A stretch of 64,000 nt of DNA from the NCBI GenBank assembly GCA_963843375.1, contig CAWJKT010000015.1, positions 68,305-132,304 of the forward strand, read 5' to 3'. Position 1 is the first letter of the stretch; each line of letters begins with the position of its first letter. A program made the position numbers and the translations under genes. Source of the stretch: an uncultured Pseudomonadota bacterium. Its GTDB lineage: Bacteria; Oederibacteriota; Muellerivitia; Muellerivitales; Muellerivitaceae. The notes below the pieces were generated by a model, which was not told the DNA's origin, searched no databases, and was given only the letters and a program-made list of their open reading frames with translations. This document shows, one piece after another, positions 14,131-62,351 of this stretch.

Positions 14131-14160
14131 GATGTATATATCAGGCCTTAGGAATTCTTT

Positions 14161-18036: not shown

Positions 18037-18184
18037 GATTTATTGTTAGTTTTTTGCGGTTTTGAATAAGCCTTTATTTGCGCCTTTCTGATATTTAATA
18101 AGACCGTGTTAATATAATGCCATTAAATTCTATGTTTGCTATCAGCTTGAATAAGAGGTTTTGTGAGTTCCGACACCACCCTAA

Positions 18185-19645: not shown

Positions 19646-19674
19646 TTGACAAACCCAACGGTACTACCTATTCT
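19646..19674 (+). promoter_or_regulatory. Candidate sigma70-type promoter for topA
   Basis: TTGACA (19646-19651), a 17-nt spacer, then TATTCT (19669-19674). It lies ~70 nt upstream of the GTG start in a 480-nt AT-rich intergenic region. Confidence 0.3.
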
Positions 19675-19742
19675 TGCCCAATTATAAGAGGCACCTATAA
19701 AATGGTTCTCGAATTGTAATCAACGCTTAATCGGAGATTTCA

Positions 19743-22082: not shown

Positions 22083-22092
22083 GGAAACTTTC

Positions 22093-22956
22093 GTGCAAGA
22101 CTCCATTCAAAAAGCTCAAATCCTTGTAGAAGCATTTCCCTATATCCGTCAGTGGTATGGTTCCACCGTTGTTGTTAAATATGGCGGAAGTACAAGATCG
22201 GGCGCAGAGGAACTCAAAACAACCTTACAAGACATTGTCTTAATGAAGTTTGTGGGAATGAGGCCTGTAGTTGTCCATGGTGGCGGAAAAGATATTACCC
22301 GGTTAACCGAAAAAATGGGGATACATTCCAAATTTGTTGATGGCCTTAGAGTGACAGATTTACCGACCATGGAAATTGTTGAAATGGTGTTGGGGGGAAA
22401 GATTAATAAAGAATTAGTGAGTGTTATCCACCAATTGGGCGGTTCGGCGGTGGGGCTTTCAGGTAAAGACGGGGCAATGTTAGAGGCTTCGCGAATTAAA
22501 TCCAAATCTGGAAAAGATATAGGTTTCGTTGGGAAAGTCGCAAAGGTGAATACTGCAGTTTTGGAAACCCTCGATCGTGAACAATTCATTCCCGTGATTG
22601 CCCCCTTGGGCCTAGGTAAGGACGGGCAAACTTATAATGTGAACGCCGATGAGGCAGCTGGCGCTATTGCGGGGGCATTGAAAGCCGAAAAATTGGTATT
22701 TCTAACGGATGTTCCGGGCATTTGCCGAAAAAAGGATGACCCAAAGACGCTCTTTTCAACTGTTAGGGTTAAGGAAGTTCCTAAGCTCCTCAAGAGTGGT
22801 GTCATCTCGGGTGGAATGATTCCCAAAATCGAAGCTTGTCTTCATGCGCTGAAAACGGGTGTACATAAGACCCACATCATTGACGGCACCCTACCCCATG
22901 CACTGCTTTTAGAAATTTTCACACCTAAAGGGGTTGGAACGGAAATTGTTCCTTAA
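22093..22956 (+). CDS. argB: Acetylglutamate kinase
   Basis: VVVKYGGS, VVVHGGG and NVNADEAAGAIA motifs; 287 aa. Confidence 0.9.
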   Translation: MQDSIQKAQILVEAFPYIRQWYGSTVVVKYGGSTRSGAEELKTTLQDIVLMKFVGMRPVVVHGGGKDITRLTEKMGIHSKFVDGLRVTDLPTMEIVEMVLGGKINKELVSVIHQLGGSAVGLSGKDGAMLEASRIKSKSGKDIGFVGKVAKVNTAVLETLDREQFIPVIAPLGLGKDGQTYNVNADEAAGAIAGALKAEKLVFLTDVPGICRKKDDPKTLFSTVRVKEVPKLLKSGVISGGMIPKIEACLHALKTGVHKTHIIDGTLPHALLLEIFTPKGVGTEIVP

Positions 22957-23084
22957 ATTCTATAAATAAAGCCAAAATATACAAAGCCATGGCTATCAAG
23001 TTCTTGATAGTTCGTTTATTGATGTAACCTACCTGTGGTATAATCCGGCCGATATTTTTACCACAACCTGTTGAGGAGTTGTTC

Positions 23085-23543
23085 ATGAAGTGCCCCTTTT
23101 GTGGACATCAAGAAGATAAAGTCATGGATTCAAGGCCCAGCAAAGGCGGTTCGGCGATTCGCCGTCGTCGGGAATGCTTGAAATGCGAGAAACGTTTCAC
23201 GACCTATGAACAAATAGAAGAAATACTTCCTATGGTTGTTAAACGCGATGGACGCCGAGAACCTTTTGATCGTTTGAAGATTGTGGCCGGCATTCGCAAA
23301 GCAGTTGAAAAAAGACCGGTTTCCTCTGAGAAAATTGAAGCTCTGGTGGATGACATTGAAAATACATTGATGGAACGAGCCGCCAAGGAAATCAATTCCA
23401 CTGAGGTGGGAGAAATGGTTATACGTCGGCTGCAGGACTTGGATGATGTGGCTTATGTGCGGTTCGCAAGTGTTTATCTCCAGTTTAAGGACATCAATGC
23501 TTTCATGGATGTTGTTAAAAAGGTTCTAGCCCGAAAAAGCTAA
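23085..23543 (+). CDS. nrdR: Transcriptional repressor NrdR
   Basis: [17 protein letters not shown]...[12 protein letters not shown] Zn ribbon plus an ATP-cone. ATG follows GAGGAG (track start 23079). Confidence 0.9.
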
Positions 23544-30109: not shown

Positions 30110-30451
30110 GGGGGTGACCGGTTTCGACTGGGAAGCTGAACTTTTGGGAGCGTGTCGAGGCGCCATCGCTCGTCAAACATGGCAACGGTTTAACTGCCGA
30201 CAATCAGTTAGCTCTGGCCGCTTAAGCGGTTAGCGTTTCGCCTTTGATGCCTATTAGGGGGAGGAAACGTAAGCAGTAGGCTGGTCCGCAACAGGGTTGT
30301 TCCACCGATGGGCGGATGAGAAACAAAGGGACTGGCTTTCCGCCGGCTGCTCGGGAGCGAGCGGGAGGCGAGACTCATTCTTGAGCTACGCACGTAGGGC
30401 CCATTACGGATGTTTTTCAGGACGTGGGTTCGATTCCCACCACCTCCACCA
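30110..30451 (+). ncRNA. ssrA: tmRNA (SsrA)
   Basis: 5' GGGGGUGACCGGUUUCGAC pairs with 3' ..CACCUCCACCA, giving a G3:U alanine identity pair. T-arm GGGUUCGAUUCCCAC. Internal tag reading frame ends ..AAU CAG UUA GCU CUG GCC GCU UAA (..NQLALAA*), 30181-30225. Confidence 0.9.
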
Positions 30452-33096: not shown

Positions 33097-34149
33097 GTGA
33101 GAATGGGCGTTTCTTATTCGCTGGAAAAGTTGGCGCAGGAGATTGGGGCCACCCTGCAAGGGGATGGATCTGTGCGAATTTTTGGTATTGCACCTTTGGA
33201 TAAGGCGAAGGAAGGGGACATTACCTTCGTCACGAATGCCCGATATAAAAAAACGGCGATGGAAACCAAAGCTTCAGCTATTTTATGTGAAGCCCCCATT
33301 CCTGGAAACTCCAGGGCATTTCTGTTAATTGCAAATCCCTATGTCGCCCTCGCTAAAGTTATCTCATTGTTTCATCCGAGAGTTTCGTTCTTGCCTGGGA
33401 TTAGGACTGGAGCTTACGTGCATCCCGAGGCTTCCGTGGATTCTCAGGCTAGTGTTGCGGCCGGGGCTACCATTTCCGCCGGAGCGAAGGTTGGCTCCCG
33501 ATCGGTTCTTTATCCCGGTGTCTTTATTGGCGAAAATACTGTTGTGGGAGAGGATTGTCTTCTTTATCCCAATGTCACGGTGAGGGAAAATTGTGTATTA
33601 GGAAACCGAGTTGTTCTTCAACCGGGAGTGGTTGTCGGCTCTGATGGGTTTGGTTTTGCCAAAAATAATGATGAAAGCTACCAAAAAATTCCCCAGGTTG
33701 GAAATGTGGTTATTGAAGACGATGTCGAATTGGGAGCAAATACCTGCGTCGATCGAGCTGTTCTGGGGACTACCCTGATTGGAAAAGGAAGCAAACTGGA
33801 CAACTTAATTCAAGTTGGCCACAACGTTGTAATCGGGAACCATACGGTCATGGCGGCCTTGAGCGGTATTTCGGGTTCCACTCAGATCGGGAATAACGTC
33901 ACGATGGGGGGGCAAGTAGGCATCGCCGGGCACCTTAAGATTGCAGACCACGTGACTTTAGCCACCCGTACGGGGGTTATGGAAGACATTGTTGAAAAAG
34001 GCGTCTATTGGGGTTCACCGTCCACGGAGATGAACTCAGAGATGAAGAATGTTGCTGCTTATCGACAATTGCCCGGGATAGTGAAGCGGATCCGTCGTTT
34101 GGAAAGGGTTCTTGAAAAGCTCAGTGGTGTGAAAATTGATGAAGAGTGA
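33097..34149 (+). CDS. lpxD: UDP-3-O-acylglucosamine N-acyltransferase
   Basis: N-terminal LpxD domain (L..LA..IGA.L.GDG...I.G.APL..A..GDITFV) followed by hexapeptide repeats. Confidence 0.9.
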   Translation: MRMGVSYSLEKLAQEIGATLQGDGSVRIFGIAPLDKAKEGDITFVTNARYKKTAMETKASAILCEAPIPGNSRAFLLIANPYVALAKVISLFHPRVSFLPGIRTGAYVHPEASVDSQASVAAGATISAGAKVGSRSVLYPGVFIGENTVVGEDCLLYPNVTVRENCVLGNRVVLQPGVVVGSDGFGFAKNNDESYQKIPQVGNVVIEDDVELGANTCVDRAVLGTTLIGKGSKLDNLIQVGHNVVIGNHTVMAALSGISGSTQIGNNVTMGGQVGIAGHLKIADHVTLATRTGVMEDIVEKGVYWGSPSTEMNSEMKNVAAYRQLPGIVKRIRRLERVLEKLSGVKIDEE

Positions 34150-34951
34150 TTTCGGGACAAGATTCCAAAAAACGATTGATCACCCCTTCTCTTTCGAAGG
34201 AGTGGGGTTGCACACAGGCGATACCTGTCGTGTTAAGGTATCCCCATTGCCAGAAGGATCAGGTATTTGTTTTTATAGATCCGACTTAAATGCCAATATT
34301 CCTGTAACGCCCGAGGCTGTTTCCAGCACAGCCCGGGGAACAACCCTCGTGGGGGAAAAAAAAGCAACTGTTCAAACGATCGAGCATTTTTTGGCGACCA
34401 TTCACGGGTTTGGAATCAACAACCTCAAGATTGATATGGATTCAGAAGAAATGCCCATTCTGGATGGGAGCGCCGCCTCTTTTTGCGATTTTTTTAAAAA
34501 AGCAGGTGTAGTCGAACAAAAAAAACAAATATCACCCTTGAAGGTTACCGAAACCATTGAACTGAGCTATGGTGATGTTTATTTAAAAGCGGAGCCGGCA
34601 GACGGACTTGAACTGGATGTGACGATTTCTTTTCCATATCCGGGTCTTGAAAAACAAAAAAAAGTTTTTCATCTTCCGGAGCAAAATTTTGAAAGTGAAT
34701 TATCATCTGCTCGTACCTTTTGTTTTGAGGAAGAGATCGAAGAACTTCGTCGGCAAGGTTTGATAAAAGGCGGGGATTTAAGTTGTGCCTTAGTGATTGG
34801 GAATAAAGGCGTTTTAAATGGTCCCTATCGTTTTGAAGATGAAATTGTGCGGCATAAAACTCTTGATTTGCTGGGCGACTTAATGCTTTTGAATCGCCCT
34901 TTGTTGGCTAAGGTTACGGTTCGGAAAGGCCGGCCACCGTTACCATGTTGA
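34136..34951 (+). pseudogene. lpxC: UDP-3-O-acyl-GlcNAc deacetylase LpxC; C-terminus displaced by a +1 disruption near 34928, and the corrected frame runs into fabZ
   Basis: GVGLHTGD, TIEHFLAT, RHKTLDLLGDL. The conserved ..[17 protein letters not shown] is only readable in the +1 frame, which has no stop before the fabZ ATG at 35031. Confidence 0.88.
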
Positions 34952-35030
34952 ATTAGCCAAAGCCCTCCTGGAAAAATTCGGGAATGGGACCAAAAGCATA
35001 AAAACCATATCAAAATCAAAAGAGGAGACA

Positions 35031-35483
35031 ATGTTAGATATTCTTGAAATACAAAAAATCTTGCCACACCGATATCCTTTTTTATTGGTCGACCGGATTT
35101 TGGAACTGGAACCGAATAAAAGGGTGGTGGGAATTAAAAACGTTACGGCCAATGAACCTTTTTTTCAGGGACATTTTCCAGGTCACCCCATCATGCCAGG
35201 GGTTTTAATTATTGAGGCTATGGCCCAAGTCGGCGGAATTGCACTTTTGAATAGTGGGGGCGAAAATCTTGGAAAAATTCTGTATCTGGCGGGAATTGAT
35301 AATGCCCGATTTCGAAAACCCATTACGCCTGGGGATCAGATCCGCTTTGAGATCGATGTTTTGTTTAATCGAGGAAAAATCGCGAAGGTTTCAGGTAAAG
35401 CATTAGTGGATAGCCAATTAGCGGTGGAAGCCGAAATTACCTGCGCGATTGTTGAGAAGAACGCCCCCAAAAAGGAAAACTAA
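35031..35483 (+). CDS. fabZ: 3-hydroxyacyl-ACP dehydratase FabZ (probably the C-terminal domain of an LpxC-FabZ fusion)
   Basis: [37 protein letters not shown]. Confidence 0.9.
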
Positions 35484-37124: not shown

Positions 37125-38213
37125 TTATCGATTCTTCCAAGCGAGCATTATCGGGACAAGCAAAGCAAAGATAACGTTCACGACCCATACGGATAGAAAA
37201 GGTGAAATGACCCCCGCTTCGCCTAAGTGCTGCCCGATTTGCATTCCCCCCAAATAGACAAAACCTACGGCCATGCTAATTAAGAAACTGGTCACAACCC
37301 CGCTGTATTTTCGCATGGTCCAACCCCATGGAACCCCCAAAATGGCCAAAATGACACATCCGAAGGGAGAAGCGAATTTATAATAGAGTTCCACTAATTC
37401 CTTGTGGCAATCAGAACCATTTCGTTTTAATTGGTTGATGTATGCCACCAACTCCGTGATGTTGAGTTCGTTGGGTTCCTTTTGTTCTTTCAAAAAGTCA
37501 CTGGGCTTTTCTGGAAGGGCAAGCGGCATTTTATCAAAAGGTTGGGCGGATATTTCGGCGTCGGAGTCGTCAAAGGTTCGTAAATATCCGTCGTAAAAAA
37601 CCCACTGACTGTTCTCGTATTTGGCGGCTTTTGCATCTAGGCGGGATTCCAGGTGGCTATTGGGGCCGAATTCCAAAATAAGGATGTCTGATAAGGTGTT
37701 AGTGGTTCCGTCGAAAGCACCAATGTGATAGAGCTGGCCTCCGACGCCGATCATTGAAATGTCTTGCCGAAACTTATTGGTTTCGGTTTCGGGTTGATGC
37801 AATATTTCCACGGATTTGATCCGTCGTTTCAAAGCCTCGGCCTTAGGGACCACCAGTTCATTGAATAAAATGCTTGAGACACAAATGATTATTCCTGATA
37901 AAAATAACGGAATGGCCACGTAATAAATATTGATTCCGCCTGCCCTCATGGCAATAAGCTCGTTTCCTTTGGAAAGCCCGCTTAAAGAAAAAAGTACCCC
38001 AAACAAGCAAGCGATAGGGATGATCTGGATAATAAAACTCGGAATATGAAAAGAAAAATATTTAAGTGTCACCAAAAAATTAGGTTTGAATTCCATGATG
38101 AGATGCATATCGTTAAAAATTTGAACTAGGAGAAAAAGCACGCTGAATCCCGCGGTGGCCAGAAAGAAAGGTTTTAGGAACTCGTTTAAAATATATCGAG
38201 TAAGAATTTTCAT
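37125..38213 (-). CDS. lptG: LPS export ABC permease LptG (YjgP/YjgQ family)
   Basis: 362 aa with YjgP/YjgQ topology (3 TM, a large periplasmic domain, 3 TM). Second gene of an abutting pair. Confidence 0.75.
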   Translation of the reverse strand: MKILTRYILNEFLKPFFLATAGFSVLFLLVQIFNDMHLIMEFKPNFLVTLKYFSFHIPSFIIQIIPIACLFGVLFSLSGLSKGNELIAMRAGGINIYYVAIPLFLSGIIICVSSILFNELVVPKAEALKRRIKSVEILHQPETETNKFRQDISMIGVGGQLYHIGAFDGTTNTLSDILILEFGPNSHLESRLDAKAAKYENSQWVFYDGYLRTFDDSDAEISAQPFDKMPLALPEKPSDFLKEQKEPNELNITELVAYINQLKRNGSDCHKELVELYYKFASPFGCVILAILGVPWGWTMRKYSGVVTSFLISMAVGFVYLGGMQIGQHLGEAGVISPFLSVWVVNVIFALLVPIMLAWKNR

Positions 38214-39374
38214 CTAGGCGACGGCCTTTCGATTAAATCTTTTTTTGCGGATTGAGGAAACCCGGCGTCTAAAGGCCGAGTGTTCGGAAATCACAATGTA
38301 ATAAATCACAATACCCGCGACAGCCAAAATAATATTGGCGCCCCAAAGACCTAGAAAAGGATCGATTTTTCCATCGTTACTCAAAGTCTGGCCAAACATG
38401 AACATTAAGTAATAGGCGAAAATCATGGCCAAACCCAGGACAAATCCCATAAATCCCTTGGATCGAGTCCAAAGACCCAAAGGAGCACAAAACCAGGTTA
38501 GCACCAAACAGGCAAATGGGAGAGCAAGGCGTTTTTGGTATTCGGTTTTAAGGTAGTTCAGTCGTCCCGGATCGGTTTCGTGTGGAATCGCGCGTTCTAT
38601 TTCATGCAAGTCCATTTCCTCGTAATCTTTCTTGACGTCGGTTAGTCCAGCCAATTGATTTTCCAATTTTAATCGGATGATATAATGTTCGAAGTAAAGT
38701 TGGTTGTAAGTATGATAGTGATTGTTGTCCCAACTCATGACGCCGTTATTCAAATGGAAAAAAACTTGGTAGGATTTTTGATCGGTATCGAGTGTTCCAG
38801 TCTTGGCAAGAGTGGTTTGTACTGAAGAGTTTGAAGACCAATGGTCAAAGACTTTCACGTCTGAAAAGAGGCCGTCCGGATCCCTTCGGTCGATATAAAA
38901 CTTGTGTCCCTCGAACTGGTCAATAAAAACTCTTTCTCGGATTGCGACATCCGCCTTTTTCTTGACAATGTTAAATTCAATTTTTTTGACCATAAACTGT
39001 GCGGCCGGAAGGACTTTATCATTGAAGTAAAGCATCAGACAGGTCATAAGAAGGCCAAACAGAAGGATTGGGGAAATGAGATGAAATAGGTGGCCTCCAC
39101 CACTTTTGAAAGCCGTGACTTCCATGTCAGAACTTAATCTTCCGAAAGCAAGAAGGGTTCCTACCATCATGGCCATAGGAATGGTCAGCGAGAGTATCAA
39201 GGGCAGAAGGCTGACGTAGAGGAGTAAGGTCTCGGAAATAGAGACCTTTTTATTGAGGACCAAATCCAGGGACAAGAAAATTTTGTTGATCATAAAAAGA
39301 AAAGTCAAAATAGCGACGCATAAAAGAAAAGACGGCAACATTTCCATGAGAACGTAGCGATAAATAGTTTTCAT
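38214..39374 (-). CDS. lptF: LPS export ABC permease LptF (YjgP/YjgQ family)
   Basis: 386 aa, same architecture. First gene of the pair; its stop abuts the lptG start. Confidence 0.75.
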   Translation of the reverse strand: MKTIYRYVLMEMLPSFLLCVAILTFLFMINKIFLSLDLVLNKKVSISETLLLYVSLLPLILSLTIPMAMMVGTLLAFGRLSSDMEVTAFKSGGGHLFHLISPILLFGLLMTCLMLYFNDKVLPAAQFMVKKIEFNIVKKKADVAIRERVFIDQFEGHKFYIDRRDPDGLFSDVKVFDHWSSNSSVQTTLAKTGTLDTDQKSYQVFFHLNNGVMSWDNNHYHTYNQLYFEHYIIRLKLENQLAGLTDVKKDYEEMDLHEIERAIPHETDPGRLNYLKTEYQKRLALPFACLVLTWFCAPLGLWTRSKGFMGFVLGLAMIFAYYLMFMFGQTLSNDGKIDPFLGLWGANIILAVAGIVIYYIVISEHSAFRRRVSSIRKKRFNRKAVA

Positions 39375-39655
39375 TCAAATCCTGAGCAATTCATGCCCTC
39401 TGGCGCCCGGAATAGGCCGAAGGTTTAATGTGCCTAGCCTTCAATTAAATTGATTTTCGGCATGTGATCGAAGACAAGGGGCAGACAAGGTGAATCGCCG
39501 TCAGTATAACATAGGGTTTTCGCCCTTTTAGGTCCCTTTTCCGTCCATTCGAGAGTTCTCCGAACCATTCACAACCAAGATGAGATATTTTTACTTTAGG
39601 GCATCAGCCCTCATCTTCCGGATTCACCCGGTGATGGAAGGGCTGATATTGGGCA

Positions 39656-39695
39656 ACGTCCGGGCCGATTGAAAGATTGGCCCGGCGTTATTTTT
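39656..39695 (+). terminator. Intrinsic-terminator-like hairpin with no upstream plus-strand gene (orphan)
   Basis: ACG(U)CCGGGCC, a 12-nt loop, GGCCCGGCGU, then UAUUUUU. A second long imperfect hairpin lies at ~39603-39650 (AUCAGCCCU..AGGGCUGAU). Confidence 0.45.
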
Positions 39696-39868
39696 AAAAG
39701 CGTCTCATCCTCCAAAAACAATAAGGAAATGGAATGGAAAAGGTCAAAAATAGCCCATGGAACTTTCCGAGAATTGATATCATTTCAAAAGATGTTTCTT
39801 TTCCGGGTAAGATATCCCGTTTTTCGACCCAAGATGCCGGAAACCTCATCAATCGGAAAGAATGGACC

Positions 39869-41020
39869 ATGAACAAAGCATGGAAAAAAATATTTTTACT
39901 AGATTTTGAGAAATCTTTTTTTTCTTCTTGCGGAAAATTGCTTCTTATTTGGAATCCTCTTTGGACTTTGATTGTGACCATTGCTTTAGGAAACCATTCC
40001 CTTACTTCAATCCTTTTTAGGTGGGGCTGGAATTTTTTGGAAGCCTCACTCGTTTGCTTCATGGGGCTCGCGGTGATACGGGTTTATCTTTTGGTTGAAA
40101 ATATTTGGGCTATTAAATCCTCAAAAAATCAACCCCGCCACGGGACAGGCTGGTACATGTTTTTCCTGGCCTTCCTGGCGCCACCTGGATTGTTTATAGC
40201 GGTTCGATTAATGGTTGCCGGAATAAATTATTTTTATGCCGGTGCGCCGATCGCTCCAAGCTTTCAATGGGAATATTACGGAACGGAAATATTTTGGGTT
40301 TGGGCGCTTTTGCTGGTTTGCTTTTTGTTTATGTCTTGGCAGGATTTGCGCGATTCGGTCCAAAGAAATCAACTTCGAGCGGAGGAACTGGAAAAAGAGA
40401 GGCTTCATGCCTTATTAACCAAGTTAAAAGACCAAATGAACCCGCATTTTCTTTTTAATACTTTGAACACGGTGGCATCCTTAATCCCGGCGGATCCTGC
40501 CAAAGCGGAGCAAGTGGTGATTAAGCTTTCCACTCTTTTTCAAGGCGTTTTAACTGCCACAAGAAGAACCCACCACCCACTGGAAAAGGAATTGGAGTTT
40601 TGTCGTGACTATCTTGATATAGAAAAAGTCCGTTTTGGATCGCGCTTGGAGTCCCATATTCATGTTGAAAAGGATTTGGATCCGGCGAGAGTTCTTATCC
40701 CGGTTTTGTTGCTTCAACCATTAGTTGAGAATTCTGTCAAACACGGTCTTTCATCCCGGGCGACGGGAGGTCACCTTTGGATCAACGCGTGCTTGGCCAA
40801 CGGTAATATGAAATTGAGTGTGGAGGATGATGGAGTCGGTTTTGGAAATTCCCCCTATTCGGGTTCAGGAACAGCTTTGGAAAATTGTAGAAAAAGGTTG
40901 GAGTTGGGTTTTGGAAAAGACGGGAAAATGGAGATTGTCCCTAGGGATAACGGGGGAACAAGAGTGACATTGATTTTACCGGTAATGAACGTTGATCTTT
41001 CGGATGAGGTGGAAAAATGA
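39869..41020 (+). CDS. LytS/YehU-type sensor histidine kinase
   Basis: Multi-TM N-terminus, NPHFLFNTLNTVASLI (His_kinase family), and HATPase LLLQPLVENSVKHGL..EDDGVGF..GSGTALENCRKRL. Track ORF 39734; ATG 39869 is the likelier start. Confidence 0.8.
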   Translation: MNKAWKKIFLLDFEKSFFSSCGKLLLIWNPLWTLIVTIALGNHSLTSILFRWGWNFLEASLVCFMGLAVIRVYLLVENIWAIKSSKNQPRHGTGWYMFFLAFLAPPGLFIAVRLMVAGINYFYAGAPIAPSFQWEYYGTEIFWVWALLLVCFLFMSWQDLRDSVQRNQLRAEELEKERLHALLTKLKDQMNPHFLFNTLNTVASLIPADPAKAEQVVIKLSTLFQGVLTATRRTHHPLEKELEFCRDYLDIEKVRFGSRLESHIHVEKDLDPARVLIPVLLLQPLVENSVKHGLSSRATGGHLWINACLANGNMKLSVEDDGVGFGNSPYSGSGTALENCRKRLELGFGKDGKMEIVPRDNGGTRVTLILPVMNVDLSDEVEK

Positions 41021-41766
41021 TCAAGGTTATGATCGTGGACGATGAAACCCCGGCGCGTACGCGCCTCGCTAGAATGCTCTCCACTTTCAAAGATATTGAA
41101 GTTGTTTCTGAGGCCTCCAACGGATTGGAGGCTTTGCAGATTGCCGAAAATCTAAAACCGGACTTGGCTTTTCTTGATATTGAAATGCCCGAACTTAATG
41201 GTTTGGAAGTGGCAGAAGCTTGGGGGGGAGGAGGCCCGATGGTGGTTTTTGTAACGGCTTATAGTGAGCATGCTTTGAAGGCCTTTGAACTTTCGGCGTT
41301 GGATTATTTGGTAAAACCCGTTTCCACGGAAAGGCTGACCGAAACAATTGAACGGATAAGAAAAAGAAAAAATCCAACCCCATTGGGGAACATTCAGAAG
41401 TTTCTTGAGAAATTGGAAGAGGGAAGAGTGAAACGGCGAATGGCGGTCAAATGTGGGGCTAAGTACCGTGTTTTCGACCCAGCCCAAGTTTCAGCCGTGA
41501 TCGCACGGGATCATTACGCTGTTATTTTGCTGGAAGGGCAAGAACTTTTGGCGGATGACAGTCTAGATACTTTGGCTCAAAGGCTGGACTCCGGACGTTT
41601 CTTGCGGATTCACCGCAGCGCCATTATCAATCTGGATTTTCTTAAAGAATTGGAACACGAAGGCGACCGAAAATATCTGGCGATTTTATCTGACGCAGTC
41701 AAAACACGTTTGCCTGTCAGCCGAGAACGATTGGACGAATTGAAAAAAGTATTGAACTTGGATTGA
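41017..41766 (+). CDS. LytR/AlgR-family response regulator (receiver + LytTR DNA-binding domain)
   Basis: VMIVDDE, DLAFLDIEMPELNG, DYLVKP. LytTR region ..FLRIHRSAIINLDFLKEL. 4-nt overlap with the kinase gene. Confidence 0.9.
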   Translation: MIKVMIVDDETPARTRLARMLSTFKDIEVVSEASNGLEALQIAENLKPDLAFLDIEMPELNGLEVAEAWGGGGPMVVFVTAYSEHALKAFELSALDYLVKPVSTERLTETIERIRKRKNPTPLGNIQKFLEKLEEGRVKRRMAVKCGAKYRVFDPAQVSAVIARDHYAVILLEGQELLADDSLDTLAQRLDSGRFLRIHRSAIINLDFLKELEHEGDRKYLAILSDAVKTRLPVSRERLDELKKVLNLD

Positions 41767-41875
41767 AGACGATGAAACACACTTTTTGTTACATGTGGGG
41801 AAATTGTTCTGGAGTGAGCCCGGTTTTTTATTATGGTTATAACGTTTTCTGGCCATTTTTTAAAAGGATTAATGA

Positions 41876-44800
41876 ATGTGGTTTTCCAACATATACTTCT
41901 ATGCAATAACCACAATTAAAAGCCTCCGGCTATTATTCGCTTTTTTTCTGCTGGTTTTGACGGCTAAGGGACTTGAGGCTCAAACAGCGGGTGTAACAAA
42001 TTCTTCGGGTTCCGTAACGGCAATTCAAAGCGCTTCGGCCCCTGCTACCGATTTGTCCGTTAGTCCACAGGAAGAAATCCAAATTTTGGACGCTATCGAG
42101 GCCCAATCGAATACCATTTCGGCTGGTTCTACTGCCCAAGGAACCACGGTTTCCACAAATAACCAAGGCCAATCCATTGCGGGCCTTAACTCCAATTCTT
42201 CTTCAGTTTCGGTTTCTTCTCCGACTCCTATTGCGATGAGTTATGCTCCGCCATCCGAACCCACGGGATTGAGTTTCTTGATTCTGAAAGAAGGCATTTA
42301 TCTCTCTTGGGCGGCAGCTTCGGCTAATTCAGCTGTCACGGCATATAATGTTTTCCGTTCCACAACCCCTGGGTTTGGATATAAAAAGGTTAATCTAACG
42401 CCATTGACTGCGCCTTATTTTCTGGATGGCGCCCAAAACAGCCTTTCACCCCCCCATAATGGGGAAGACTATTTTTACGTCATTACTTCCAACGATTCCC
42501 AAGGCAATATCAGTCCTTATTCCGACGAAATAGCGGTAACGCCCGAAGGCATGGAGATACCTGAAACGGAGGAGGAAAAAGAGGCTCGGAAACCCAAATC
42601 GAAGCCAACGCCCGAGGCTGAAAAGGTTCTTAATATACCGGATAAAATTAATATACAACTTCCTGCCGACACCTCACTTGCCATTCAGGGATACAAAAAA
42701 GTAGACATCCTTATGGCTTTCCAGGATTTCGACCGCCCAGCAATCAATGGAGTTTTACCGGAAGTGAACACGACCACCGTCAATCAAGAATTAGTCGTGA
42801 CTTTGCAGGGAAAAGTGGGGAAAAACGTCGACGTGAACGTTGATTACAGCGATGTCAACCGGGCAGGGGGCGTGGACCAGACTAAGCAGGATATTTCTAT
42901 CAAGTACCACGGGGACACAGATAGCGCTATCCAGGAGGTGGACTTCGGAGATCTACAACTTGTATTGCCTAACACGGAATTTGCGGGTTTCAGCAAAGAG
43001 TTGTTCGGCCTCGAGGCCAAAGTCAAAGTCGACCAACTCAACCTGACCACCTTTTTCGCTCAAACAAAGGGTATCTCTGAAACGAAAGTCTTCCAGGGGA
43101 ACGCTACCCAAAACGACATGTATATCCAGGATATAAGTTATGTTCCTTATAAATACTTCCTAATGACTCGAGATTACAAGGCCTATACCGATCCGACGTC
43201 AGGACAAACGGTAAATGGGGCCGGGCCGCAAAATAGCACGGAACAGATTTGGGTGGACCCGGGAACCGGAGTGATTAATCCTCTTGGACCCAATTTCAAT
43301 GGGCTTTTCGAGCATTGGCTACCGGGCCGGGATTACACGGTTGATTATTCAACCGGTATTATTACCTTCATTCGAGGGTTATCCCAATCCTCCCGGATCG
43401 CGGTATGTTTCCAAAGAAAATATGACGGGGCTTACATCGGGTTTGCCCCTGGTTCTACCACAACCATTGATCTCTCAAGCGCCAGTTTGTATGTGCCGGA
43501 TGATGGAATTGTGGGAAGGATTCCCCCGCCACCAATTGATCCTGGAAAAACGGTTGAGGGACATTTAATTAAAGATAACAACAACAGTACAGGAGGAACC
43601 TCCGCTACAGCTGTCGCCCTGAGCCCCAACTATCTGGTGAATTACTTTAATTTGGGAACCAACAAAATCACTCCCCCTCAAGAGGATCCCAATTTCATGT
43701 TCCAAGTCATTTCTCAGGGCACCAATAACGTCTTACAAACGGGACAAGGGGTCACGGCAGTGGGGGCCACTAATCCCTGGGTATACACCGTGAATTTGGA
43801 TTTTAACTATCTGACGGTCACTAATTCGAACTTTTACATAGCCCCTGGAACCATTCCCCCGGTGCCGAATGCTGCCACCTCCTTCCTTTGGCCTGAACGG
43901 CCTTTCGCCAATTTGGATACGACCGGCGGTTCCAGTTCAAGCAACACCCCCACGGACGTTTATGACCAGACCACAAGTCCAACCAGCCTCTATTCGATTC
44001 ACATCCGATATAAAACCCAATTAAATTTCTACCAGATGGGTCGCTTCAATATCATTCGTGGAAGCGAGTCGGTTTATCTCGACGGTCGCAAACTGCAAAG
44101 AGACGTGGATTACACTTTCGATTACACCTCGGGATTTCTGGATTTTGTCAACAAGAGCATCCTGACGCCCGCCAGTCAGGTTGTCGTTACCTATGAATAC
44201 GCTCCCTTTGGTACTTTCAGCGCCGATAACATCCTAGGAGCCCGGGCCGAATATGACGTTAACGACCATTTTTTTATTGGGTCCACTTTTCTGGAAAGTG
44301 ACGCTCAACAACCTATTGATGTCCCGCAAATCGGTTCCACACCTGATTCCCTAACTCTCTTCGATGCGGATGCGAAATTAGATCTTTTGTCGGAGGATGT
44401 TCAATCTATTACCGGCATTATTCCGGGTTTGGAAAGCTGGAAGCCGCCTCTGACCATCAAACTATCCGGAGAAATCGCCCAAAGTTTTTACAATCCCGAT
44501 ACTTTCAGCGCGGAAGGAGAAAACGGCGTGGCGATGGTGGATAACATGGAAGGCATCGACAGCGTTTCGGGACCATCCATGAATCAAACAAGCTGGTTGG
44601 TCTCATCTGCGCCACAGCCTGTTTTCACGTTCCTCCCGGGTTTGGTACCGGTTGCAGCTTCGGGTCCAAGCAATAACCGAACCCGGTTTTATAACGCGGG
44701 CGACGTCTAATCCCACCATGACCATTTTCCAGACGATTGGGACCACAAATGCGGTTGGCGGCACATATCAAAATTTCCCGAGTGTTCCTGCCTACGGGGG

Positions 44801-47800
44801 AGAAACCTACGCCAATACCCAGCAGGCGAACGACGCGGTCGCTGTTCTCCAATTTCCCTATACGAATTTAACCAACCAGAAGTGGGCCGGTCTGAGGTCG
44901 GTCATTTCCGCCAATGGAACCGATTATTCGAACGTCACCTTTTTGCAATCTTGGATTTATAACGACGGCAATCCGAAATGGGTCATGGTGGATTTTGGGG
45001 TGATTAATGAGGATTCAAATGGTAATGGGGTGTTGGATTTTGATCCGGGAATGACGGCGGTTCCGCAAGTTGCGGCTAATCCGAATTATGGAATTCCCAC
45101 ATTTTATTTTCAGGGTAACCCTTGGACCGGAAGCGATACAACGCCATTCGCTTCTCTTTTTGGGGGTGAGACCACTTCACAAGAGGGAGTCAGCGTTGGA
45201 AACGGCACCAGTTATGTGACGGAAAACATGGATGGCACTGGAATATTAAACACCAGCGATGCTTACTATGAATATGGTTTCCAAGTCAATTGGACAGGTT
45301 GGAAACAAGTAAAGGTACCTGTGAGTTACACCTCGGCAGACAATATGACCACCACTCCGGACGGGACCACTTATTTTTTCCATACGCAGGGCTCTGCCAA
45401 TCCGACCATTATCCGATCGGTGAGGGTTTGGACCACGGGGGAAAGTTCAACCCCGATCAGCGGCGATTTTTACATGCAAAATATCAGTTTCAGCCACAAC
45501 CTTTGGGTGTTGTCCGTGGACCCGACGGTAAATGCAAATGAGGGCATCACCGTTAATACCTCGAAGTTCGACGTGAATTCCATCAGCCAGAACCAGAATT
45601 CGAATTACGTACCCACTTTGCGTTTCATTACCGTTCAGGCGGGTCAGGACCAATCGGCCCTTCTATACCAGGAAAAATCTTTGGAGCTCACTTATAACCT
45701 ATCCAATGCGGATATTTATAACGGCCTTCCCGCTTATTACGCCACCCGGAGTTTCAATCCGGGGCTGGATTTCACCAATTACGATGATATCCGGATGGAT
45801 CTTTACATGCTTTCTTACCAGCCCGGGGAAGTCCTCTTCGTCAGGATCGGGAACGACCAAGCGGACTATTACCAATACAACATACAATTGGATGCTGCGG
45901 CCGTCAGTTGTTTGGACAATTGGGGGACCGTTGACCTGCCTATAAATGGTTCGGGAGGAAACCGGCTACAGGTGGGAACACCTTACATTAACCGCGCCAC
46001 CCAAGTCAGCTTTGGTATTCTTTCACCAAACGCCCCCGCGGCGGGGCACACGGGGGATCTTTGGATCAACAACCTCAGGGTCGCTAATGCCAACGTGCGA
46101 AGCGGTGTTGCCAGGCGTGTTGATGCGGCTTTTGTTTTTGGAAAAAACTTTGCCACCATCAATACCCGTTATCGGGAAGTGGACTCGGGTTTCACCGAAA
46201 TCGACCAAACCTCCACCCACTTCCAGCATTCCACCCAATGGGGCGCGGATTTTACATCAAGCGGCGTAACCCTATTTTCCCAACCTTTGGTCACCCAAGC
46301 CTCGCTCACCAGGCAGGACCTCTATACCGAGGCCGCCTTACTGGACAACCCTTACTATATTAATCTTCCGGATAGCCTTATTGACAATTTCACCGGAAGC
46401 ATCAGTTACACCAAAGATCTCGGCCCCAGTTTAGGGAGATTGACCGCCGTGCGTCTTTCCGGAAGCACCAACTATGAGACGGATGTCTATGAGGAAGCCT
46501 ATCTCAGCCAGCCAGGTGTGCAGGGCAATACACAAAAGGGAGAGGCAATCGAAACCTTGGCCTCCACCTATGACGCTCCGAAAAAATTATTTTTTATCTC
46601 CTTGGGTGCGAACCAATTCACGGAAAGCTACAGTTTAACCCACGATACCCAGGAATTTGATAACACCTCCTTTGCTCCTTATGACCGGCTTACCCGGTCT
46701 CAAAATTATTCATGGACGAACACCACGGAATTGTTGAAAAATCTCGTCTTTACCCCCGGTTATACTTTGACCTTGGTGGACGCGACGGGAAATACCAATT
46801 CACCCGGCGTTCCCGGCAGTGTTCTCGGGCTATACCCCTTTCAATCAGCGGTACCAGCCCAAGTTGGGTTTGGTTTATCGGGGCATACCGGGAATGATTC
46901 CCGCGGTGGATTTTACCGGTAGCAACCAGTACGATTATGTTTCCTATCCGGACGGAACCCGGTTCAACAACGCCAATAACCTGAATTATTCCCTCAACCT
47001 GACGCCGGGCAGCTGGTTTTCCTTGTTCCAGAAAATGAACCTGACGATATTTGGCGGGATCACCGAAAGCGGTACAGCCGCTATTCCGGATATTGCCAGG
47101 ATCAGCACCCCTGAATTTTCGGCATCGATGGTCTGACCAGCCCTGTATTGCCCCTCAATGGTTTTAACCCTTTTGACTTGCCTTAACCGGCAACCAGTCC
47201 ATAGCCCATCAATTGAACGCCAGTTTCCGGCTTTTCGACGTCTGGGATTTCCGGCCTACGGGTTCCTGGACCGACCAGTTAAGTCTTTTGTCCCAGGGCA
47301 CCTACCCCGTCAAACAGGATGGAGAAACACTTGGGGTTGACGACCATTTACAACAAAAAGATATTTACCCTTCCTTTCGTGAATTTCTCACTTAACTCCG
47401 CCCAATTTCAATATACCCATACGGGCACCATCCAATACGACAGCTCGGTTGCACCCGTTTCGCTGACATCGCTAATATTTCCAACGATACCACGAGCGAT
47501 ACCTATGGGATCACCTTGCCTTATGACATCAATAAAAAAGCCCAGGGCACCATCAAATTCCAACGCACCGTCGGTTACTCAGGATGGATTGTCCACCACC
47601 GATATTCCCACTTATCAATTGGATGACCAGGCTTCCATCGAATATGACCAGAAATTCGCGCCCAATGGAATCATCCATATTCCTTTCACTCATTTGAAGA
47701 TCAAACTTCAGGACGCCATCGAATTACAAGCGATCTTCCTCATGGAGTTAATCAATAACCAATCGACCTACATTTACAACAAGTCCAATCCCAAAGGTAC

Positions 47801-47946
47801 CGTGCTACAATTAATCTCAATTATAACGCCCTCAAGAATTTACGAGTCGGAATCGGCTTGGTGAATGAGTATTTCACAAATGACCTAAATTCCCAGTTGA
47901 GTTATACCTTGTGGCAGGTGACGTTTCCGCGGAAGCGCGGTTTTGA
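41876..47946 (+). pseudogene. Giant (~2,000 aa) SprA-like outer-membrane protein with an N-terminal FN3 domain; about 9-10 frame disruptions as given (one near 44.7 kb, the rest between ~46.8 and 47.9 kb)
   Basis: Signal peptide, then an FN3 unit (YNVFRSTTPG...). The block VVTLQGKVGKNVDVNVDYSD...ISIKYHGDTDSAIQEVDFGDLQLVLP...LFGLEAKVKVDQLNLTTFFAQTKG...YKYFLM parallels the SprA N-terminal signature as I recall it. The frame-corrected C-terminus ..LSYTLWQVTFSAEARF resembles an OMP beta-signal. Pieces lie in track ORFs 41876, 44652, 46819, 47213 and 47319. The 3' end is approximate. Confidence 0.55.
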
Positions 47947-48063
47947 GGATTGTGGCCGTTAAAATGATCGGAGCTATTTTGAGATCACCTTGAGACTTCT
48001 CCATCTTGTGGCGTTAAAATTCATTATGAAGATGCGTTATTAAAGAGGCGAGGAGACACTGAT

Positions 48064-51000
48064 TTGAAAGTTAGTTTTTTTAGGCGACAAGCATGGATGT
48101 TTTCGATGTTCTTGCTCATCTTCATCCAATCGGTTCCGTGCCCGTATCGGCTCAGGCCCCAGCGCCTAGCGGTTTAAGTGTTTTGCCGCCTTATGACGGT
48201 CAGGTGAACCTGGCAATGGACACCGGATATTTCCGAAACCCCAGCTGAAACGGCTTACGCGGTTTCCCGGGAATTGGTGAATTTGACCTGCTACCCCGAC
48301 CCCCACATCCACCGGACCCATCACACCAATCCTTACTTGTACACCCTATTGCGACAGTACTTTTATCTGCTATGCCTTCATCGCGGGAACTCCTGTTTAC
48401 CAGGATTTCCAGGTTACCAACGGCCGTTTTTACCTTTACCAAGTGCAGGGAATGGACGTAAATGGCCCAGGGACCGCGGCGCTGTGACTATGGCACCCTT
48501 ATCTTGCCCCCGCAGCCGTCCAACCTGTGAGCGTCTTGAACATCCACTCAAACGCCTTGGATCTTTTTTGGGGAGTACCAGTTTCCAGTTTTCCTGTTTC
48601 TTTTTACCAGGTATACCGGTACGAATATATTGCCACAACAGCCATGCCGACGCCCACATTCACCAACAGTCCCACGATAACACCAACTATAACTTCGACC
48701 CCTACTGGAACATGGAACACCTCAACGGCAACTTCCACTCCGACGCCCTTTACACCTACTCCCACAGCAACCACCGCATTTTCCACAACACCTCCCGTTT
48801 CCGTGGCCACGATTTTAACTAACGCGACTCCAGTAGCGACCGTCTTCGGAACGACCTACAGTGACCTATTTTCCTACCCCCACCGGAGCAGAGGCCTACT
48901 ATTACGTTGTAATGGCGGTTGATAGCGACACACCAGGAAATTTAAGCGCCCAGCCGACGCTTCCTTCCAATCCTGCATTGCCTCAAAACATGGCGCCGCC
49001 GGGCCCCGATAGCCTTACGGGAGCTACTCTCCACCACTTCCTATGGGGTAAGTCTTTCCTGGACGGGATCGTTGTCATCGGAGCAGGTAACGGCTTATCA
49101 GGTTTTGCAGAACGGTGTAACTTTGGCGACGATTCCATATTCAAATTTGGCACCGTAACCTATTTTGACAATACGGTTCCGGGGACAGGTTTACCGGTTA
49201 CTTATATAGTACAAGCGACAAACAACTTTGGGACGACGCCTTCCAATTCTATCTTTGTAACCGTCGTGGAGTGCAATGAAGGGAGGGATTCAAGTAACCC
49301 CTAACGCGACCACGAACTGCCGTGACCATAACCTGGCAACCGGCCACGGCCGGAATTTATGGATTGGGGGTTATCAGGTTTATAAGAGCCTATATGGGGT
49401 ACCGACCGCCAATTCAACCCCACGTTTCGGGGGAGACTGCGACTCCGACGCCTTTTTATGCCGTCACCTTTAACCCCACAGTTGGTTTTACGATCACTCC
49501 CGTAATTGATTCACCGATAATAAACCATATGAATTATTGGGTCCAACCGATGGATTCGAGCGGGCACGGAGGAGTGGTGGGAGTGGCTTTTCCGCCCGCT
49601 TTGAACTTGGCGCCAACGCCACCCTCCAATGTGGGTGCCGCAGCTCCCGTGGGAAATGATCAGATTGCTGTTTCCTGGACGGCGGGTGCTCCTGGATTTT
49701 ATGGGTCCACGCAGAATAACGTGATATTTCGGTTGAACTTTACCACGCCAACTCCAACTCCCCGATTTATCGCCAAGGTGCCAGCCAGCCAGCTTAGCTA
49801 TAATGACATTGCCCCAGAATTGACGCCAGGCACTCTCATCGGCTATCAAGTCGAGCTGTCCGACGCGTTAGGAAACACCTCCGATGCGTCCCTTTCGTCC
49901 AATGGAGTTAATACTTCCGCATTAACGAATCCTCCGGCCACACCCCGGGTATTACCCTTTACAGGAACTGTCAACTCAATTGTCTTTTCTTGGGCCAATA
50001 ATCCCCGAGCCGATTGCGTGACCAATTACCAGGTTTATGGTTTCGATTGGCTTACTCCGGTACCCCTTACTCCGACACCCGTTTTGGTTGTGCCGGTTAC
50101 AGGTTCTCCCACCTTCGTTTTTACTTTTGCTCCTACACCAACCCCCTGGGCCCCCAATGATTATTATCTTGTTGCTCAAAATAGCATTGGCAATAGCCAG
50201 CCAGCGACCATGAATGGTATCCCGGTGCCAACCTACAATGTCACGGCCGTAATTCCAACTGGAACCCAGCAAGTTTCGGTCAGTTGGAACCTGGTTCCGG
50301 CGCTAACGGTCACTCCTGTAATTGATTCTTATGGAGTCTACCGATCCCTGACACCGGACGCGAAATTTACATCCATTGCGACTGTTCCAATTTCAAGCAC
50401 TAGTTATTTGGATGTACCTCCCATCGCCACTGCTGGGGTAACTTATTATTATCGGATCACAGCAAGGTCGGGCCAGTCGGCGGAAAGTCCAATTCTTTTC
50501 CCAACGATGACGCCCGATCCACAAGCAAGCCTGTTGATTTGGCCCAATGCGCCTTCGGGAGTAACGGCCTTGTCATCCTCGTATAATCAAACGACTCTTT
50601 ATTGGGCGGGGAACGCCAGCCAGGAAGGGGTGACGGGTTATTCAATTTATCTGGACGGATCACCAACACCGGTTGCCACAGTTGCGGCGTATTTAAGTCC
50701 TTCCCCAACTGTTTCTTATATTGCCCAGGAAACCCCAGGAAATCTTTCTTATTACAGTGTCCAGGCCAATAATCCCTCAGGGGGCAGTAATTTATCCCAA
50801 TCGGTAAGTGTCTTGGTGCCTCCTGCCATAACGCCCGGCATAAACTTAACACCGCCGCTTTACGTGTCCCCAACTCCCAACCAAACTCCTGCATTTTCAC
50901 CAGGGGTTTGGATTACGGGTATGAACTATTTCCCTTCGATGACCCCCACATGGGTTACGGGTTATTCCATTTACAGATTAAGCGTTCCTACCCCCAGCAC

Positions 51001-52735
51001 CACACCCACGTTTGTTTCGGTGGGTTCAGTCGCGGCTCCCGTTTCCTATTTTGAGGACACCGGTTTTGTTCCCGGATATGTAAATTATTATCAAGTCGTG
51101 GCAAGTAACACGGGATTAGGGATCAGCGCAAATCCGGCTGTTTCGGCCCAATTAGGGGTCACCCTTTGGCCCGAACCACCCAATTTTACATTTACAGGGA
51201 ACGCCACATCGGTAACCCTGTCCTTTGCCACCCCAACGGGCAATAACGTTGCGATATCGGGGTATGACATCTACCGCAGCCTTTATCCAACCACTACTCC
51301 CAACCCAACCCCTTATGCTCAAATCACTCCGCCCATTTCGACTTATTCGGATTCGGGAGTCAGCACGGGGACGGCTTATATTTATTGGATGGATGCTCAA
51401 AACTCCCAGGGGAATAGCGGTTATTCCGCGCCACAAAGTTTTATTCCTGTTCCGGTGCCGACCCTGTACCTGACTCCGCTTCCTGAACGAAATCAGCTTT
51501 TTTGGGCTCCCATAACGGTGGCAACGGCAAGTCCCGTGACCGGATATGCCGTTTACCGTGCGGCCGTTCCGACACCAAGCTTGACACCGAATTTCGCTCA
51601 AATAGGCTCGATCGTGGAGCCTATTTCTAATACTAATTATGTTGATACGACTGTCACCGATGGGGTTTCTTATATTTACGAGATCGCCCCCAGTTCACAA
51701 AATAATATGCTTGGTCCCTTTTCAAATACCGTTACCCAATATGTTTATCCCCAACCGGTGACCAACTTCATCGCCGTTTCGGGGGATGATTTGGTCCAAC
51801 TGCGGTGGGCTTACCAGGGAATCGCCAGCAATACGGTTTACATCCAGCGGAAGTTGGGGCCGGCCCCTGGATCTACTTTCCAAACCATCACAACTGGATA
51901 TCAGGGCGTGAATTTCACGGATACAGGTGTTGTCGACAAAAACTTTTATATTTACCATATTTATTCCGTGGATGCCCTGGGACTGACCTCAACTTCTTAT
52001 GCGTCGGCTATTGCTTTGCCGGCAAAGCCACCAATACTCCAAATTCCCTCGGGTGCGACCGGGCCGCCAGTGACATTGACCCAGAACGCAAGCAACGCGC
52101 AAACTTTGATTGGAAATACACTCTCCTGGGGAGGGGCCGATCTAACGGGCTTCGACCCGACCACCATGTATCCATTGGGGGGATACTCTATTTCAAGGTC
52201 ATCGGATGGTGGAGGGGTTTATCAAAACATTGCCATCGTTCCGGTTACTTTTGTGAACGGACTCCCCACGGCTGCCGCAAATTACTTCGATCAGGTTCCT
52301 TTGATCAATGGTTCGGCTTATACTTATTTAGTCCAAGCCTTTGACAATCCTCCTAACCTTCCGGTAGGGTTTTCCGAAGCCGTGACGGAGGGGTTGGTCC
52401 ACCTCAGTACTTACAATCCAGTGACGGGTTTCCCCATTAGTCCCAATACAGCGTTGGACCGAAACGCAATCCATCCCACAATCGCTAATGAAAATTCCGT
52501 AAATATCCGTTTTATAGTCACCACTCCTGGCAACGTGACGATCAAGGTCTACACCTTGGACGGGACTTTCGTTATGCAACTAGTGAATCAGTATTATTCC
52601 CAGCCAGGTATTTTTTGGACAAATTGGAACGCCCACAATATGTTCGGAAACCTTGTGGCGTCAGGGGTTTATCTCATTACCACGGAATCTCCAGGTGGGC
52701 ATCAGGAATTTGAAAAAGTAGCGGTTATCAAATAA
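48064..52735 (+). pseudogene. ~1,550-aa secreted protein with at least 10 FN3-like modules and a T9SS-type (Por_Secre_tail / FlgD-Ig-like) C-terminal domain; at least 10 frame disruptions in its first ~1.4 kb
   Basis: Signal-peptide-like start (..RRQAWMFSMFLLIFIQSV..VSAQA). Recurrent modules P..V..L......V.L.W.......GY.(I/V)YR.....P...F..I......Y.D......Y.Y.V.A. T/P-rich linker (TPTFTNSPTITPTITSTPTG..). C-terminus NSVNIRFIVTTPGNVTIKVYTLDGTFVMQL...WNAHNMFGNLVASGVYLITTES..GHQEFEKVAVIK. The 5' coordinate is approximate. Confidence 0.6.
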
Positions 52736-52946: not shown

Positions 52947-54024
<1,078 letters not shown>

Positions 54025-62275: not shown

Positions 62276-62351
62276 TGGCGACCCCAACGGGAGTCGAACC
62301 CGTGTTACCGGGATGAAAACCCGGTGTCCTAGGCCTCTAGACGATGGGGTC
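62276..62351 (-). tRNA. tRNA-Glu (anticodon UUC), CCA encoded
   Basis: The reverse complement GACCCCAUCGUCUAGAGGCCUAGGACACCGGGUUUUCAUCCCGGUAACACGGGUUCGACUCCCGUUGGGGUCGCCA folds as a cloverleaf. The 7-bp acceptor pairs GACCCCA with UGGGGUC, and the anticodon loop is UUUUCAU. Confidence 0.9.

Follow-up and report, generated by a model that had tools for sequence, protein, structure and literature searches.

A SprA-like giant outer-membrane protein gene paired with the gene of a C-terminal-domain-tagged repeat protein in candidate division FCPU426: a putative translocon-cargo operon

A 64,000-nucleotide stretch of contig CAWJKT010000015.1 (assembly GCA_963843375.1; the whole stretch is hereafter the window) carries a four-gene module at positions 39734-52735, with all of its long open reading frames (ORFs) on the + strand. 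In order, the genes encode a sensor histidine kinase, a LytTR response regulator, a giant protein resembling the outer-membrane translocon SprA (Sov) of type IX secretion (type IX secretion system, T9SS), and an FN3-repeat protein, here called the cargo. The preliminary description of this DNA, made from the letters and their ORFs, had listed these as four co-directional genes; all four are real, and the two large ones are broken in the window rather than clean ORFs. A scan that took one genome per species recovered 27 related loci, and the order LptF/LptG (on the - strand), kinase and regulator (where present), SprA-like protein, cargo and GAPDH is kept across the 27 species. Two relatives, L001 and L003, share ~82% identity with the window in the SprA-like protein, and L003 was used as the reference for reading frames and for ratios of nonsynonymous to synonymous substitution rates (dN/dS). 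These ratios are 0.05-0.10 for all four genes (0.09 for the kinase, 0.047 for the regulator, 0.064-0.066 for the SprA-like protein and 0.099 for the cargo), the mark of purifying selection.

The SprA/Sov-like gene (41876..47946, + strand) encodes ~2,020 amino acids (aa) once its eight frame disruptions are corrected. The product comprises a signal peptide, an FN3-like domain (42248..42550, + strand; residues ~125-225; profile match to PDB 3mpc, 'Fn3-like protein', E=5.7e-4) and a SprA-homologous core. Against TIGR04189, which together with PDB entries 6H3I, 6H3J and 8GL6 was our reference for SprA and Sov, the N-terminal 944-aa ORF of the window (41876-44710) scores 198.3 bits (E=1.4e-58; cut-off 200). 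The frame-joined orthologue of L001 (82% identity) and the intact protein of L003 reach 238.5 and 226.6 bits, both above 200. A profile built from nine members of the family also matches Flavobacterium johnsoniae SprA (6h3i_A, E=4.5e-12) in colinear fashion, with query residues 275-427 corresponding to SprA 151-298 and 678-1076 to SprA 689-1181. The Pfam model SprA_N (PF14349) gave no significant match to the protein. The SprA resemblance first proposed from the N-terminal region is therefore borne out by intact orthologues that pass the TIGR04189 cut-off and by the colinear structural match, and of the two hidden Markov models (HMMs) suggested for checking it, TIGR04189 agrees in the intact orthologues, with the window fragment at 198.3 of 200, and PF14349 does not.

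The C-terminal half of the protein, searched alone, matches just 88 clusters among 1.84 billion representative proteins. These belong to the FCPU426 clade, to a tier of 2,000-2,200-aa proteins at ~30% identity and to a tier of 1,500-1,750-aa proteins at ~26% identity; a match to 'cell surface protein SprA [Bacteroidota bacterium]' is also found (E=4.7e-4). One distant relative of the C half, 1,662 aa long (L035 287-5275), is annotated in a Caldisericota metagenome-assembled genome (MAG; RLD17450.1), which hints that the giant-barrel family extends to further phyla. After frame correction the protein ends in ..GDVSAEARF, its stop codon lying at 47944-47946, which confirms the ..ARF ending, typical of outer-membrane proteins, that had been expected there. 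In an AlphaFold2 model of the 944-aa N part, confidence is confined to the FN3-like domain, which is built of beta strands and has predicted local distance difference test (pLDDT) values mostly of 77-85 with a dip to 67. As judged from these comparisons, the ~2,020-aa protein is a genuine, very distant member of the SprA family with a putative barrel architecture.

Downstream of the regulator, the window presents overlapping ORFs in shifting frames (41876-44710, 44652-46922, several short ones, and 49322-52735). Frameshift-aware dynamic-programming alignment of the intact L003 proteins to the window DNA places eight disruptions in the SprA-like gene (at 44702, then seven in 46824-47916) and ~12 in the cargo gene (48119-49423). 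Nineteen of these ~20 fall within a 2.6-kb error-rich patch (46824..49423) that runs from the 3' end of the SprA-like gene into the 5' end of the cargo gene, and the remaining 8.3 kb of the two genes contain one. After correction, identity to L003 within the patch is 85.5% in the SprA part and 71.5% in the cargo part, equal to that of the clean parts. The SprA-like gene is a single ORF of 1,886-2,033 aa in 20 of the 27 related genomes, and the cargo is a single complete ORF in 18 loci (1,439-1,724 aa, stop to stop). Other genes of the window are frame-broken as well, namely GAPDH (52950-54024), LpxC-FabZ (34136-35483) and CheA. Many of the related genomes come from long-read metagenome assemblies, as the window probably does too. 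Because about 20 relatives are intact, the indels are clustered without loss of identity and housekeeping genes are also broken, the ~20 disruptions are most likely long-read assembly errors, not biology, and gene models in the window need frame correction before their annotation can be trusted. Outside the module there are single breaks at 34951-35031 (LpxC-FabZ), 53431-53513 (GAPDH) and 16055-18036 (CheA), and indels are very unevenly spread.

Could the breaks nonetheless be real, with the SprA-like and cargo genes decaying as pseudogenes in this strain, or with 44702 marking a split gene or a programmed frameshift? Some 20 disruptions are indeed present, and the +1 break at 44702 recurs in L001, a genome from another assembly that is 82% identical, where a conserved ATG follows the break. 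Yet the reading frame runs through this site unbroken in L003, which is no more distant than L001, and in 19 other species. The extra base of L001 sits in a G6 run, where deleting one G restores the L003 peptide NAGASNPTM exactly, and that of the window sits in GCGGGCG; both sites are typical for indel errors. The crowding of 19 disruptions into 2.6 kb against one in 8.3 kb of the same genes, the lack of any relaxation in identity or dN/dS, and the broken housekeeping genes also argue against biological decay, which we regard as very improbable. At 44702 itself, a split gene or programmed +1 frameshift was rejected on the continuity of L003, L004, L006 and 17 other species and on the G run of L001.

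The cargo gene (48064..52735, + strand; intact part 49322-52735) was delimited by tblastn against the L001 and L003 orthologues and encodes ~1,555 aa after frame correction. It starts with TTG at 48064, preceded by AGGAG, and from this codon encodes a signal peptide, as the orthologues do. Most of the protein consists of ~95-aa FN3-like units (fn3, PF00041, E=4.8e-5) joined by Pro/Thr-rich linkers, and the motif Y-x-[IV]-[YF]-R is repeated along it. In nearly all species from L003 to L029, the signal peptides of the SprA-like protein (41876-41990) and of the cargo (48064-48160) end ..A-Q or ..G-Q (LEA-QT, VWA-QA). These ends resemble the 'Q-rule' signal peptides that the abstract of PMC5837995 describes as Bacteroidetes-specific.

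The last ~95 cargo residues, strongly conserved among orthologues, form a C-terminal domain (CTD) of the T9SS type-A or FlgD-Ig type, a ~95-aa beta-sandwich (52448..52732, + strand) with the pattern ..ALDRNAI.P....V.IRF.V...G.V.IKVY.L.G.FV..LV...G..W..W.A.N..G.LVASGVYL......G.QE..KVAVIK. No residue follows the domain either in the window or in any of the 18 orthologues. Type-A CTDs are represented by TIGR04183 and PF18962, and those of RgpB, HBP35, PorU and PorZ have been solved. Eighteen of 19 orthologue CTDs match TIGR04183 at E<=0.01 (best E 6.4e-6), and all 19 match the CTD of PorZ; about half of the 19 also match FlgD Ig-like domains. The window CTD matches its counterparts in PorZ, PorU and an M6-like protease that depends on the T9SS. 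A profile search with the domain collected 2,320 proteins, mostly with PF13860 and/or PF18962, and their alignment shows common motifs. A model of the last 200 cargo residues (pLDDT 90.4) contains two beta-sandwiches, with the last ~95 residues all-beta, and Foldseek matches to it include PorU (6za2, E=1.8e-4) and FlgD. The predicted fold is consistent with a T9SS CTD, and it is common to many Ig-like domains and thus non-discriminating. Taken over the family, the type-A CTD signal appears real but marginal: the assignment in the preliminary description is upheld for the orthologues on TIGR04183, and the window's own domain falls short of that cut-off and is not significant in PF18962.

A local CTD HMM run over the window and the 27 loci returned cargo orthologues only, with no second CTD protein. 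Beyond these loci, its matches in the sequences collected were two, the giant cargo-like protein of lineage L036, described below, and P0095, a second FCPU426 protein built of nothing but a signal peptide, a Pro/Thr linker and this CTD. The architecture of P0095 fits the idea that the CTD is a reusable sorting module.

The cargo gene directly follows the SprA-like gene in all 22 informative loci, that is, in those extending far enough. The distance from the stop codon of the one to the start codon of the other is -1 to +3 nucleotides (nt) in 13 species, 13-17 nt in four and 109-155 nt in three; it is 117 nt in the window. The same pairing recurs in L036, a deep FCPU426-related lineage. There, the gene of a 2,207-aa SprA-like protein (TIGR04189, 188 bits) overlaps by 1 nt a gene for a 2,483-aa FN3 protein that ends in this CTD too (E=4e-15), and the pair lies behind a ribosomal protein cluster, with neither a two-component system nor an lptFG neighbourhood. 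The adjacency of a translocon-like gene and its probable substrate, which the preliminary description had called non-canonical, is thus the rule, and in most species the two genes abut. These arrangements support a pairing that is non-canonical and apparently tight in function. The L036 region (7771-23317) additionally encodes, directly behind rplQ, a 491-aa multi-pass membrane protein that no Pfam family covers. In the FCPU426 genome GCA_040756875.1, a second SprA-like gene after rplQ is absent.

The two genes that open the module form a two-component system. The LytS/YehU-type kinase (39734..41020, + strand) has His_kinase (PF06580, E=3e-24) and HATPase_c (E=2.7e-8) domains, and hydropathy predicts four transmembrane helices (residues 67-87, 101-127, 139-165 and 181-205) with almost no periplasmic loops; no 5TMR-LYT (PF07694) match and no GAF domain were found in it. 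Orthologues align from about residue 40 on, and the Met codon at 39866 may be the true start. The regulator gene (41017..41766, + strand), which shares its first 4 nt with the end of the kinase gene, encodes Response_reg and LytTR domains (Pfam E=1.3e-21 and 9.3e-19). Its best NCBIfam model is BtsR, at 162.7 bits and below the cut-off of 246, and LytR gives 120.8 bits against a cut-off of 375. Between the regulator and the SprA-like gene lie 109 nt (41767..41875). The gap is ~110-120 nt throughout the window's clade and in L004, L010 and L023, and 12-61 nt in 12 species.

The two-component system stands directly upstream of the SprA-like gene in 21 of the 27 loci. It is absent in the five most divergent, and one locus was not decidable. 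The short gaps in many of the 21 loci make co-transcription with the SprA-like gene likely. Because the two-component system is absent at this site in the five divergent species, it is best described as a later insertion in one clade, and the SprA-cargo pair as the conserved core. Upstream of the kinase gene are two short tandem repeats of 8-11 nt, one of which is not kept in L003, and a structured leader (39602..39695, + strand). The leader consists of one hairpin followed by a strong terminator-like hairpin with a T-run (39660-39685). In a terminator scan the stem has 11 pairs, seven of them G-C; the fold z-score is -2.76, and at L003 7720-7830 compensatory base changes preserve the stem. 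No Rfam family matches this leader, which separates lptG from the kinase gene and could act as an attenuator or represent a small RNA.

Which organism does the module come from? Most of the 27 loci are labelled candidate division FCPU426, and the rest 'bacterium', 'uncultured bacterium' or, in three MAGs, 'proteobacterium'. NCBI taxonomy lists FCPU426 among unplaced candidate phyla, and its 16S cluster groups with Goldbacteria (PMC7031533). SecY of L036 is closest to FCPU426, and its nearest named matches outside FCPU426 are from Goldbacteria and Spirochaetia. Going by the labels of the related genomes, the host belongs to candidate division FCPU426. On these labels, the 16S cluster and this one SecY, the earlier suggestion that it is a relative of the Fibrobacterota-Chlorobiota-Bacteroidota (FCB) superphylum is not supported.

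So, what might the pair do? Candidate phylum FCPU426 conserves the locus as an operon-like unit, and the explanation that we favour, as the probable one, is a dedicated translocon-cargo operon by which a giant adhesin or coat protein reaches the cell surface. The repeat protein would cross the inner membrane by Sec, both large proteins being predicted Sec substrates. Its CTD would then be recognised at the SprA-like barrel, which would pass it across the outer membrane, and the cargo would end up displayed at the surface, as adhesin or coat. In the one clade with a kinase-regulator pair, that pair may tune expression of the unit.

Several observations weigh against this explanation. The CTD of the window is sub-threshold on TIGR04183 (22.0 bits, cut-off 23, E=1.2e-4) and not significant on Pfam PF18962 (12.7 bits, cut-off 27, E=0.16), and PF13860 FlgD_ig-type domains also end proteins of phyla without a known T9SS, for example P0127 of Elusimicrobiota. 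The mean pLDDT of the N-part model is 43.6, too low to show the putative barrel architecture. Control of the module by the LytTR regulator, as the phrase 'under a LytTR regulator' in the preliminary description implied, is suggested by position only: neither direct nor inverted repeats were detected in 41767-41875, and none of LytTR type, where binding sites had been proposed to lie; the two-component system is lacking in five species and in L036; and the kinase gene is preceded by a terminator-like hairpin. Lastly, Pfam scans of 47 ORFs of the window that are 130 aa or longer found no PorK/L/M/N/V/U/P family, in agreement with the earlier report that PorK/L/M/N, PorV and PorU are missing from the window. 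None of the T9SS core (GldK/L/M/N or PorK/L/M/N, PorV, SprE/PorW, SprT/PorT and PorU) turned up in the window, and no other T9SS component occurs in the ~20-kb flanks of the 27 related loci. Known systems have their T9SS genes scattered, and absence near the locus therefore says little.

The lack of such neighbours bears also on a different proposal, in which the SprA-like protein and its cargo are a self-contained export device that works without the GldLM motor, the PorKN ring, PorV and PorU, as an ancestral or stripped-down type IX form outside the FCB group. The pair is phylum-wide and translationally coupled, a second deep lineage has it elsewhere in the genome, and in ~30 loci no other T9SS gene is nearby. 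The SprA-like protein is, moreover, very distant from canonical SprA, its C half having so few representative relatives. We nevertheless consider a self-contained device improbable. Given the usual dispersal of T9SS genes, absence from the flanks is weak evidence, and the existence of at least one other small CTD-type FCPU426 protein suggests a pathway with several substrates. In F. johnsoniae, substrate release from SprA needs the motor, SprE and SkpA, and substrates stay trapped on SprA without the motor (PMC10994853), which implies that an energy source is needed. It is similarly doubtful that FCPU426 uses a minimal relative of type IX secretion, with one barrel and one CTD-tagged FN3 protein and without GldLM or PorKN, possibly representing an ancestral state of the translocon.

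The genes upstream of the module raise another alternative. LptF and LptG, two paralogous permeases of lipopolysaccharide (LPS) export (37125..39374, - strand; PF03739, E=1.9e-83 and 1.3e-78), are encoded divergently from the module, and lptF/lptG stand upstream in all FCPU426 loci that reach that far. They belong to an envelope-biogenesis cluster (Skp, LpxD, LpxC-FabZ, LpxA, LpxI and LptFG), in which the genes from Skp to LpxI stand just upstream of lptFG. The LpxC-FabZ fusion reported earlier is real, being a single 445-aa ORF in L003 (2277-3614) and frame-broken in the window. SprA-family genes divergently adjoin lptF/lptG also in L031, L032/L033 and L034. One of these lineages carries 'cell surface protein SprA [Bacteroidota bacterium]', and two are unclassified with SprA-like proteins of 2,100-2,200 aa. 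In the T9SS literature searched, we found no mention of lptF/lptG beside sprA; this wider synteny could reflect an old link of the barrel family with LPS export.

Accordingly, the SprA-like protein might not be the pore of its neighbour at all, and might serve the outer membrane or LPS together with lptF/lptG and the lpx genes, the CTD of the FN3 protein then being structural rather than a sorting signal. The placement of the locus inside an envelope-biogenesis cluster, and the divergent SprA-lptFG arrangement shared by FCPU426, a Bacteroidota lineage and two further lineages, speak for this, as do the PF13860-type C-terminal domains in phyla without a known T9SS and the sub-threshold score of the window CTD. 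The SprA family is, however, defined by an experimentally proven translocon (PMC10994853), and the fact that the two genes are coupled stop to start in most species, and likewise in L036 without any lptFG neighbourhood, points to a joint function. The domain also sits at the extreme C-terminus in all orthologues, with its best matches among the CTDs of PorZ, PorU and the M6-like protease (M6i). A role in LPS or outer-membrane assembly in place of cargo export is, on balance, unlikely, and we retain the translocon-cargo operon as the working explanation.

The remaining neighbours in the window include glycolysis genes, SecG and Lnt, a chemotaxis cluster and a PilB-like ATPase. At 2543-4846 a 767-aa protein joins a T2SSE domain (an ATPase of type II/IV secretion) to a long stretch of TPRs, and beside its gene, at 679-2448, lies that of a TMEM260-like O-mannosyltransferase; large TPR proteins are interleaved with the chemotaxis cluster (6370-18036). 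An Rfam scan of the window returned tmRNA and tRNA only: a tmRNA at 30110-30451 (+ strand) with the tag peptide ADNQLALAA, and tRNA-Glu(TTC) at 62276-62351 (- strand).

Type IX secretion has been described as confined to Bacteroidota or to the FCB superphylum (PMC7463736; PMC11205867), and our literature search returned no paper connecting FCPU426 or Goldbacteria with the T9SS. Here, a clear if distant SprA orthologue occurs throughout an uncultured phylum, under strong purifying selection, in an operon with a single CTD-tagged giant protein. If a motor and a carrier are also present in these organisms, the range of the T9SS would be extended, and the pair would provide a natural model with one translocon and one major cargo. 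If they are absent, a SprA-type barrel would work without the rest, which has a direct bearing on the energy supply and the evolution of the T9SS.

How does the module compare with systems already known? Its two-component system resembles LytS/LytTR systems such as BtsS/BtsR and LytS/LytR, combining a kinase with PF06580 and HATPase_c domains and a receiver-LytTR regulator for which BtsR is the best model. It differs from these systems in its kinase, which has four transmembrane helices but neither a 5TMR-LYT nor a GAF domain, and both regulator scores are below the equivalog cut-offs. PorXY are the canonical T9SS regulators. The FCPU426 two-component system is unrelated to PorX and PorY, and its link to the SprA-like gene is positional and absent in five species.

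The combination of one barrel gene and one giant repeat passenger gene invites comparison with two-partner secretion (TpsB/TpsA), as a functional analogy only. There is no sequence relationship, the putative signal is C-terminal in place of an N-terminal TPS domain, and the barrel is about four times larger. A closer parallel exists within the T9SS, where type-B CTD cargo genes can stand beside a dedicated PorP/SprF-like partner, as sprB does with sprF according to the abstract of PMC9143113. In that account, as here, a T9SS cargo gene adjoins the gene of a needed outer-membrane T9SS protein. In FCPU426 the neighbour would be the translocon itself and not a PorP-like anchor, and the CTD is type-A-like rather than type B.

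The cargo shares with T9SS type-A CTD substrates a ~90-aa beta-sandwich at the extreme C-terminus, a Sec signal peptide and a modular passenger, along with the motifs ..NP.., V.I.VY...G..V..L, W.G.N..G..VASGVY and K..VIK. It departs from them in scoring at or just under the cut-off, in its N-terminal motif (ALDRNAIRPFG against the usual ..QNYPNPFN..) and in being equally close to FlgD Ig-like domains. The SprA-like protein in turn differs from SprA of F. johnsoniae and Sov of Porphyromonas gingivalis. Its score is about a tenth of that of canonical SprA, and Pfam SprA_N is not significant. It is ~380 aa shorter and has an extra N-terminal FN3-like domain, its host belongs to FCPU426, and its gene is coupled to a single cargo gene. 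What it has in common with them is giant size (~2,000 aa, compared with 2,403 aa), the presence of a signal peptide, HMM matches that run colinearly over N-terminal and central parts of SprA with intact orthologues above the family cut-off, and an aromatic C-terminal end typical of barrel proteins.

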